64,000 nt of DNA from Escherichia coli (GCF_045037415.1 NZ_CP173438.1); one strand, 5' to 3'. Numbered from the stretch's first letter, positions 23,130 to 24,636 are shown. Numbers and translations are program-made. Notes: generated from the letters alone by a model not told the origin.

Positions 23130-23389
23130 GGTTCTTTCCACCATCTGAAAAATGATTCTTTAAAATACCTGACATGTAATACAGAAAAAACACAAAACCA
23201 TACCTTAAATAAAAACCTCATCATCAAGCAGATATGCATGGATAAACTACAAGACGAGATATAAACCACCCTGCATTTAAATAAACAATAAACAACATCA
23301 GAAAAATAATTCTGCTCTATGGTTTACAATCAAAAATATCATTTATACTTTTCAGAACATCACCAGCAAGGCATAAACAAGGAAACTAA

Positions 23390-23725
23390 ATGAAGTGGAT
23401 TGTGATTGATACAGTTATCCAGCCATCATGCGGAATATCTTTTTCAGTCATATGGAGTAAAATAAAATTAATAATCTGGTATCAATCGGATGCTTTCTTA
23501 CCTCCTGAAAGTATATTTACACTGACTCACACAGGCATCATGCTCAATAACAAAGTGCTACCTGTAACCATTTACAACGTAGTACCATTCAATAAAACAT
23601 TCTGGAATTTAATCAAAAACAGCCAGGAATGCCCTACAAATACAGATAACGTATTGAATGAATGCTTTAATAACCGTTGCACTCTGCAAATATGTCCTTA
23701 TGGACTAAAACAACAAAGTCCATAA
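23390..23725 (+). CDS. Hypothetical Cys-rich 111-aa protein in AT-rich DNA
   Basis: SD AAGGAA; hydrophobic N-terminus; five Cys in the C-terminal 30 aa; opposite to the late operon; ends in an 11-bp-stem hairpin. Confidence 0.45.
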
Positions 23726-24172
23726 GGAGTTTACTCACATCTGACAAAATCAATATAAACAGCCCCTCCGGAGAGGGGCTGGAGAGTGGCGCTATGTGCC
23801 ATTGCATGGTGCCGGGTGCCTCCCGGTGAATTCAGTACCAGCACCTGAATCCGCGATTATCCCATATACCTACTCGCTGATTGCCCCTCCGCACAGGGGG
23901 ATTCACCATGCCAGTTTCTTTTAACAAACTCCCCGCAAACCAGACAACAATCAACCGCCTGAATTGTGAAGTATTTAAAAATTTCTCCCGCTAACTGATA
24001 CCCGGCTAACAGTCTGGCGTTTTCTTTTTCAGCAACGGGAAAGCAACAACCACCACACCCGCCACCAGCACACCGTCAGCCAGCACTGACATTATCCGGC
24101 TGCAGCAATGCCATTCACAAAAACAGTAAGCAATCACTTTTTACCGTAACCGGTGATAATCCAGATATGTAT

Positions 24173-24529
24173 CTACCCCAGATGAGTAATCCGAAGTTCA
24201 TCCATACCACAGGTCCTGGCTATTCTGTTGTACTCCTGAACAAGAGTAAATAATTCTGAATTAGCCACCATGAACTCATCGCAAACCCTCTGTATAGCAT
24301 CACTATTCAGAATAATAACGTCTCTTCCCGAAAGACGATCAGGAGTACAGAACAAAACTGTCAAACGGCTGAAGGCCTTTGCTCGTGCTGCATTGACTAT
24401 ATCAATACGCTGCCTAAGGATGAAACACCCCGACGCCTCATCAATATTCACTCTACCCACACCATATGAATGATAAATATTTAATGCTGAAAAAACCATT
24501 AGACCGTATAACAAACACTCAATCAACAC
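24173..24529 (-). CDS. Hypothetical 108-118-aa protein in AT-rich DNA (start uncertain, no clear SD)
   Basis: ORF directly downstream of tRNA-Arg at the position occupied by stxA in Stx phages; no recognisable family. Confidence 0.35.
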   Translation of the reverse strand: MLIECLLYGLMVFSALNIYHSYGVGRVNIDEASGCFILRQRIDIVNAARAKAFSRLTVLFCTPDRLSGRDVIILNSDAIQRVCDEFMVANSELFTLVQEYNRIARTCGMDELRITHLG

Positions 24530-24636
24530 TTAACAGAACTTTTATTTTTGACAAACATATAATATTTTCAACAATATCCTGAGCCAGGTATATTTCAGTA
24601 TAAGGCTCTGCCGGAAGGAATCTGGAAGAATGAATA

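Follow-up and report, generated by a model that had tools for sequence, protein, structure and literature searches.

The 64-kb stretch of Escherichia coli DNA analysed here (64,000 nucleotides, GCF_045037415.1 NZ_CP173438.1; the window) contains a lambdoid prophage whose late region lies on the minus strand and is laid out as in Shiga toxin (Stx) phages. The position that the toxin genes occupy in such phages is a 1,492-bp slot between a tRNA-Arg(UCU) gene and a nanS-p-like gene. It carries an open reading frame (ORF) for a conserved 92-aa protein, referred to as ORF92, a truncated tciB, a small RNA (sRNA) gene of the STnc100 family and, on the opposite strand, iraL. The slot is very probably a mosaic accessory ('moron') region of the prophage that consists of two sub-slots split by the conserved STnc100 gene. 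The features of the slot are the following.

23145-24636, cargo slot, 1,492 bp, between tRNA-Arg(UCU) and the nanS-p-like gene
24452-24636, minus strand, AT-rich leader from tRNA-Arg to the ORF92 start; GC 0.32; includes a non-conserved in-frame N-terminal extension
24173-24451, minus strand, ORF92, encodes a conserved protein of 92 aa from a GTG start, phrog_2873 family, at the stxA position (phrog_2873 match; substitution ratios; AlphaFold2)
24006-24137, minus strand, 5'-truncated DUF3927/TciB-like small hydrophobic ORF, 43 aa (partial phrog_1470 match; PGAP)
23751-23940, minus strand, STnc100-family sRNA gene, related to PasD (Rfam RF02076)
23390-23725, plus strand, iraL, 111-aa RssB anti-adaptor of the IraM family (NCBIfam NF007393; WP_000871291.1; PDB 8TWD IraM)
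23320-23389, plus strand, iraL promoter and 5' untranslated region (UTR) (published start by rapid amplification of cDNA 5' ends, 5'-RACE, at 23357; -10-like TATACT at 23344-23349)

Organization of the cargo slot

An initial annotation of this DNA had described a Stx-phage late region with other cargo at the toxin position, and both the gene order and the junctions with phage 933W agree with that description. The junctions were mapped by blastn of the 933W late region (L011; NC_000924) against the window, and the homology blocks are bounded as follows.

933W up to 2380, window up to 24629, through the last tRNA-Arg
933W 3749-3926, window 23969-23803, STnc100
933W from 4189, window from 23130, start of nanS-p

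It follows from these blocks that ORF92 and the tciB remnant replace stx2AB and that the iraL segment replaces the AsxR segment. The absence of stxA and stxB, also stated in the initial annotation, is borne out: with 933W StxA and StxB as tblastn queries on the whole window, all matches have E>=2 and fall outside the slot, leaving no stx remnant within it. The slot is AT-rich as described, with a GC content of 0.29 at 23145-23389, 0.345 in the iraL coding sequence and 0.32 at 24452-24636; the flanking genes have about 0.53 and the whole window 0.51. A promoter scan finds six sigma70-like sites in the slot compared with 4.6 ± 1.9 in shuffled sequences, which is no excess.

The slot matches many chromosomes of sequence type 131 (ST131) at 100% identity and the potB prophage of E. 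coli CFT073 at 98.8% identity over 1492 bp without gaps. The prophage backbones around these near-identical slots differ between CFT073 and the window, and the slot therefore appears to travel as a module among lambdoid backbones.

The module is not confined to one backbone or one attachment site: it lies at potB in CFT073 and next to ompW in ST131. In ST131 strain AR_0086 (NZ_CP032201.1 3655061-3696552, locus L024) the prophage has an HK97-like head module and its integrase adjoins ompW. In ST131 strain 4224 (NZ_CP103592.1 2733500-2735767) an otherwise identical slot is split by an IS1 element, with an IS1 transposase annotated between the two pieces.

iraL, an RssB anti-adaptor gene

Two ORFs had been recognised in the slot by the initial annotation, and their coordinates hold; both had been called unrecognised, whereas one is iraL and the other belongs to phrog_2873. 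The plus-strand ORF is assigned to iraL by the similarity of its product to the NCBIfam model NF007393, 'anti-adapter protein IraM' (162 bits with a cutoff of 121, residues 1-110 covered). The protein accession WP_000871291.1 is shared by a window-identical ST131 locus and by iraL of the CFT073 potB prophage, and the predicted protein is identical to the characterised CFT073 IraL. An AAGGA Shine-Dalgarno sequence precedes the ATG. The experimentally mapped iraL promoter is present in the window, since the 32-nt 5' end obtained by 5'-RACE (PMC4045071) matches positions 23357-23388 at 31 of 32 nucleotides.

The same ORF had been proposed to encode a secreted or membrane disulfide-bonded protein with a hydrophobic N-terminus and five C-terminal cysteines, a proposal that comparison with IraM does not support. 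The crystallised fragment of IraM, 8TWD_A, aligns gap-free with residues 1-78 of IraL, 51 of the 78 being identical (E=9e-32, phmmer against the PDB), and the core of IraL is accordingly predicted to be a cytoplasmic PmrD-like beta-barrel. The residue-for-residue alignment of the N-terminus with the cytoplasmic IraM barrel points against secretion, and the hydrophobic N-terminus would therefore be part of the barrel core and not a signal peptide. The maximum of the Kyte-Doolittle scale in a 19-residue window is 1.44. Five cysteines are indeed encoded, but only those at positions 81, 92, 97 and 102 lie in the tail, the remaining one being at position 14. The cysteine-containing tail corresponds to the less conserved tail of IraM, which was removed for crystallisation (PMC10844676) and which is highly flexible in an AlphaFold2 prediction according to the authors of the structure (PMC10844676).

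IraL of CFT073 has been characterised by Hryckowian et al. 2014 (PMC4045071). It shares 58.9% identity with K-12 IraM (PMC4045071), and both RssB binding and RpoS stabilisation were demonstrated by immunoblot, two-hybrid and co-purification experiments (PMC4045071). In growing lysogens IraL is made from its own sigma70-type promoter, binds RssB and stops the delivery of RpoS to ClpXP, so that RpoS levels go up (PMC4045071). The authors propose that IraL contributes to the niche adaptation of uropathogens (PMC4045071). The protein encoded in the window would act in the same manner, binding the N-terminal receiver domain of RssB, blocking RpoS delivery to ClpXP and raising RpoS in growing cells.

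The initial annotation had also expected cargo at this site to be highly expressed on induction. For the plus-strand ORF this expectation fails: iraL runs in antisense to the late operon, from a sigma70-type promoter of its own, and is thus not cargo of late transcription on induction. Late read-through after induction would cross iraL in antisense. In this arrangement iraL would be a lysogenic-conversion function made from the prophage and not a late-expressed toxin.

ORF92, a conserved gene at the stxA position

The minus-strand ORF sits exactly where stxA would begin, as had been pointed out, and its properties are those of a real gene; the length of 108-118 aa assigned to it earlier gives way to a conserved core of 92 aa. 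The product matches the phrog_2873 profile with E=1.2e-69. A GTG at the position equivalent to 24451 is the common start in three E. coli clades. Conservation does not reach into the N-terminal extension that begins at the ATG at 24499 or the GTG at 24529. Neither the 108-aa nor the 118-aa version was accepted as the conserved product, since the extension lacks conservation and, in clade B (L007), is broken by an in-frame stop codon six codons upstream of the GTG.

The substitution pattern argues for a protein-coding gene. Between the three clades the ratio of nonsynonymous to synonymous substitution rates (dN/dS, Nei-Gojobori) is 0.21-0.29 at a dS of about 1.0-1.2, compared with 0.85-1.16 in both shifted frames, and between-clade differences fall 23, 22 and 43 times at the first, second and third codon positions. 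Judged by these comparisons, ORF92 is a gene under purifying selection with a conserved core of 92 aa that starts at the GTG at 24451.

Homologues fall into several clades with 21-63% identity and lengths of 91-106 aa in E. coli and Citrobacter, all named 'hypothetical protein'. A DNA search that required a match over at least 80% of the gene detects ORF92 in 1,235 of 5,426 complete E. coli genomes (about 23%), and 1,184 of the best matches per record reach at least 95% identity. RefSeq annotation was sampled in 30 records out of about 1,300 matching genomes, and those of the window's variant have none at ORF92. Of the three divergent matches listed, two carry an annotation, as hypothetical protein, and CFT073 carries none at this position. 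Given the evident purifying selection on the gene, its annotation seems to be missed repeatedly. A tblastn search of a phage collection gives a single record, mEp460_ev081, in which the product is annotated only as hypothetical protein.

An AlphaFold2 model built from a 17-sequence alignment (pLDDT 89, pTM 0.75) consists of two long helices (residues 3-34 and 50-81) with a short beta-hairpin between them. Its fold relatives in AFDB50 (about 92-121 aa) are all uncharacterised members of the same family and come from E. coli, Citrobacter and, with TM 0.85-0.95, from Salmonella, Proteus (where one is named 'Phage protein') and Xenorhabdus. Pfam gives no match, either with the single sequence or with 17 family members; no match is found in NCBIfam or PADLOC, and the best E-value of a profile search of the PDB is 0.12.

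The usual partners of ORF92 would be TciA, a TerB-like protein, and TciB: the order ORF92, TerB-like TciA, DUF3927 TciB and holin is kept where the gene occurs in late regions of E. coli and Citrobacter prophages. A relative with 33% identity is located beside a fimbrial operon on contigs of up to about 107 kb, possibly plasmids. Two clades keep ORF92 under constraint without tciA, and ORF92 therefore appears to work independently of TciA. The best guess for its product is a small soluble, probably oligomeric phage accessory protein of the coiled-coil type that would act in the late or lysis phase or in host/phage interference.

STnc100 and the tciB remnant

The 447-bp stretch between the two ORFs, described earlier as ORF-free, contains the STnc100 gene and the 43-aa DUF3927 ORF. 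STnc100 matches RF02076 over its full length (model positions 1-206 of 206) with 132.4 bits against a gathering score of 47. A terminator scan places a GC-rich, intrinsic-terminator-like hairpin at its 3' end (23781-23760), followed by a T-run. In 933W the family scores 207.7 bits at 3778-3983 of the late region, 75 nt downstream of stx2B and followed by AsxR. STnc100, an established family of prophage sRNAs with a relationship to PasD, is typically encoded just upstream of a sialate esterase gene (bioRxiv 10.64898/2026.05.13.724894). In Stx2 phages it is located 75 nt downstream of stx2B (PMC12370729), and members of the family have been detected by reverse-transcription quantitative PCR in vesicles of Shiga toxin-producing E. 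coli (PMC12370729). As judged from these alignments, STnc100 is a conserved landmark that divides the two cargo sub-slots.

ORF92, the tciB remnant and STnc100 share the late strand, and Q-antiterminated transcription would read through all of them on induction. In the absence of induction, local transcripts would stop at the STnc100 terminator, and STnc100 itself would be an sRNA derived from the 3' end of whichever cargo precedes it.

The 43-aa ORF is named 'DUF3927 family protein' by PGAP in the identical ST131 locus. It aligns only with positions 23-51 of the 54 positions of the phrog_1470 profile ('TciB-like', PF13064), which falls short of a full-length match, and its maximum 19-residue Kyte-Doolittle value is 2.47. 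Alignment with loci that contain the full cassette (L012, JLK-2012) indicates that tciA, which is TerB-like, and the 5' end of tciB are missing from the window, and on this basis the ORF at 24006-24137 is classed as a truncated tciB remnant. Literature searches for TciA and TciB returned only unrelated Trypanosoma papers, and a search for DUF3927 returned nothing useful. The 'tellurite/colicin' names of the two proteins are annotation labels; no functional test of them was found in the literature search.

Several observations concern STnc100 and the sequences around it. On the plus strand at 23796-23921, PGAP annotates a 'partial hypothetical protein' pseudogene in one ST131 record and in CFT073. 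It lies wholly within STnc100 and antisense to it, and probably belongs to a spurious ORF family that annotation has propagated. Two STnc100 copies occur in the late regions of some related prophages, at 2344-2556 and 5650-5839 in L003 and at 5352-5547 and 5612-5718 in L007. In L003 the two copies flank stacked cargo, namely an AraC-type regulator, an IS3-family element and an ORF92 homologue, and a TolA/TciA-like gene is found just upstream of the first copy. Repeated STnc100 may serve as a homologous-recombination linker for the shuffling of morons.

Interpretation of the slot

Much of the slot content is already described, iraL and STnc100 in the literature and DUF3927 and phrog_2873 as database families. 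The reading of the slot as a mosaic moron region has to be weighed against accounts in which its ORFs are either something more potent or nothing at all. The initial annotation favoured the former, a novel late-expressed toxin, effector or defence gene, with the plus-strand ORF as a secreted, disulfide-bonded protein and the minus-strand ORF as toxin-like. ORF92 does occupy the exact stxA position on the late strand, phrog, Pfam, PADLOC and PDB searches assign no function to it, and both ORFs lie in AT-rich DNA that resembles horizontal acquisition. This account is nonetheless improbable. The plus-strand ORF is IraL, an anti-adaptor predicted to be cytoplasmic and encoded antisense to the late operon, and ORF92 has no signal peptide-like or membrane segment (its maximum 19-residue Kyte-Doolittle value is 0.94), no PADLOC match and no toxin-like fold, the PDB matches being generic helical hairpins. 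No signature of a toxin, effector or defence gene was seen, and a search of PADLOC-DB with ORF92, IraL and the tciB remnant, at E up to 1, gave no match. Less probable still is that the slot is what a deletion left of a former stx locus, a scar without intact coding capacity in which ORF92 would be a spurious frame in degraded DNA, an outcome that the initial annotation had itself considered. The adjoining tciB is clearly truncated, so the segment did undergo deletion, and the sampled RefSeq records of the window's variant have nothing annotated at ORF92. Yet similarity to StxA or StxB is lacking anywhere in the slot, and it was tciA, not stx, that the deletion removed. ORF92 is moreover under purifying selection with a start position conserved across three clades, has full-length homologues in other genera and yields a confident structure prediction.

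The place of ORF92 itself is a matter of lower confidence. It could be tied to the lysis cassette or to TciA and TciB, for example as a regulator or chaperone, and persist here as a decaying leftover without function. The conserved order with TciA, TciB and holin in E. coli and Citrobacter prophages would fit such a tie, as would a helix/beta-hairpin/helix topology like that of prefoldin beta subunits, though at a root-mean-square deviation of 7-8 Å. On the other hand, clades A and B keep ORF92 intact without tciA and still constrained (dN/dS 0.27, dS about 1.07), and the 33%-identical homologue stands alone near a fimbrial operon on possible plasmids; this account is unlikely. A more far-reaching proposal is that ORF92 is an expressed, functional accessory protein of an uncharacterised helix/beta-hairpin/helix family confined to gammaproteobacterial prophages. 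Located at the stx position in roughly one in four complete E. coli genomes, ST131 and CFT073 among them, it would modulate the timing of lysis, superinfection or the physiology of the host in some hitherto undescribed manner. In this full form the proposal is speculative and doubtful.

Several points weigh against a working accessory region with ORF92 as a functional member. The 28 RefSeq records sampled for the window's variant (98-100% identity) all lack an annotation under ORF92, which could reflect a low coding potential, though the substitution pattern argues otherwise. Promoter-like sites upstream of ORF92 are no better than chance, and no promoter is claimed. The searches described above gave no functional annotation for ORF92, and Foldseek against the PDB gave no match other than generic helical hairpins, from efflux-pump adaptors, prefoldin and BAR domains (best E=0.11, none at or below 0.001). 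The tciB remnant may be non-functional despite its retained ORF, and the iraL 5' UTR differs from that of CFT073 by one base.

The mosaic moron region has a bearing on how such prophages are viewed. The toxin slot of a prophage that is widespread in extraintestinal pathogenic E. coli (ST131, CFT073) is not empty: it delivers IraL, by which RpoS would be raised in growing cells. The finding that iraL fills the sub-slot held by AsxR in Stx phages adds context beyond the published work on IraL. A practical by-product is the annotation gap at the stx position, a selectively constrained 92-aa gene in about 1,235 complete E. coli genomes.

Flanking genes and other features of the prophage

The genes that frame the slot in the late region are listed below; the first four are placed by the late-region gene order.

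27763-28818, DUF968
27382-27762, RusA
26564-27385, Q-like antiterminator
24939-25988, DNA methyltransferase
24814-24889, minus strand, tRNA(CAU), upstream border of the cargo region (ARAGORN; Rfam tRNA 72.5 bits; annotation of the identical ST131 locus)
24637-24713, minus strand, tRNA-Arg(UCU), argO-like (ARAGORN; Rfam; blastn junction mapping)
21276-23144, minus strand, nanS-p-like SASA carbohydrate esterase, downstream border of the cargo (933W nanS-p homology from 23130)

The tRNA(CAU) is a tRNA-Ile (ileZ-like) according to PGAP in the identical ST131 locus and a tRNA-Met according to ARAGORN. Past the nanS-p-like esterase follow genes for a holin, YdfR, a lysozyme and Rz.

Other accessory genes are found elsewhere in the prophage. 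A hokD/sok type I toxin-antitoxin locus is located at the early-late junction (29262-29587), with the sok RNA at 29412-29587 (RF01794, 120.5 bits). Between the replication and nin regions, the minus strand carries queH (29655-30341), which encodes an epoxyqueuosine reductase of 228 aa and is an unusual tRNA-modification gene as phage cargo. The DicF sRNA is encoded on the plus strand at 36015-36066 in the immunity-side region (RF00039, 76.7 bits), and dicB and ydfABC are present in the same prophage of a matching ST131 genome.

Comparison with known systems

Phage 933W shares with the window the order of Q, the tRNA genes (ileZ, arg), cargo, STnc100, a short segment, nanS-p, holin and lysozyme. 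The cargo differs in both sub-slots. In sub-slot 1, from tRNA-Arg to STnc100, the stx2A and stx2B genes of 933W are replaced in the window by ORF92 and the tciB remnant; in sub-slot 2, from STnc100 to nanS-p, AsxR of 933W gives way to iraL, which lies on the opposite strand. The STnc100 gene of the window is about 70% identical to the 933W copy.

The CFT073 potB prophage ('potB genomic island') resembles the window much more closely, with ORF92, the tciB remnant and STnc100 in the same order and an identical IraL. It differs in having IS200C in place of the DNA methyltransferase, three tRNA genes instead of two and a truncated nanS-p (a DUF1737 remnant). It is located at potB, whereas the prophage of the window adjoins ompW in ST131 genomes. 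The tciA-tciB cassette of JLK-2012 (NC_049942) occupies the same slot, between the tRNA genes and STnc100/nanS-p. The DUF3927 ORF of the window aligns to the 3' two-thirds of tciB; JLK-2012 lacks ORF92, and the window is without tciA (phrog_632) and has a tciB that lacks its 5' end.

IraM (YcgW) of E. coli K-12 is an RssB anti-adaptor induced by Mg2+ starvation, the structure of which is 8TWD (PMC10844676). IraM and IraL belong to the same family, NF007393, and both inhibit the RssB-dependent degradation of RpoS. IraL differs in that it acts in logarithmic phase and binds only RssB's N-terminal domain (PMC4045071). The C-terminal tails of the two proteins are divergent, and so is their genetic context, iraM being carried by e14 and iraL by a lambdoid late region. 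The PasD/STnc100 sRNAs (bioRxiv 10.64898/2026.05.13.724894; PMC12370729) have an intrinsic terminator and a position upstream of a sialate esterase gene in common with the sRNA gene of the window. The window departs from the usual PasD/STnc100 loci in that iraL is inserted between the sRNA gene and the esterase gene.

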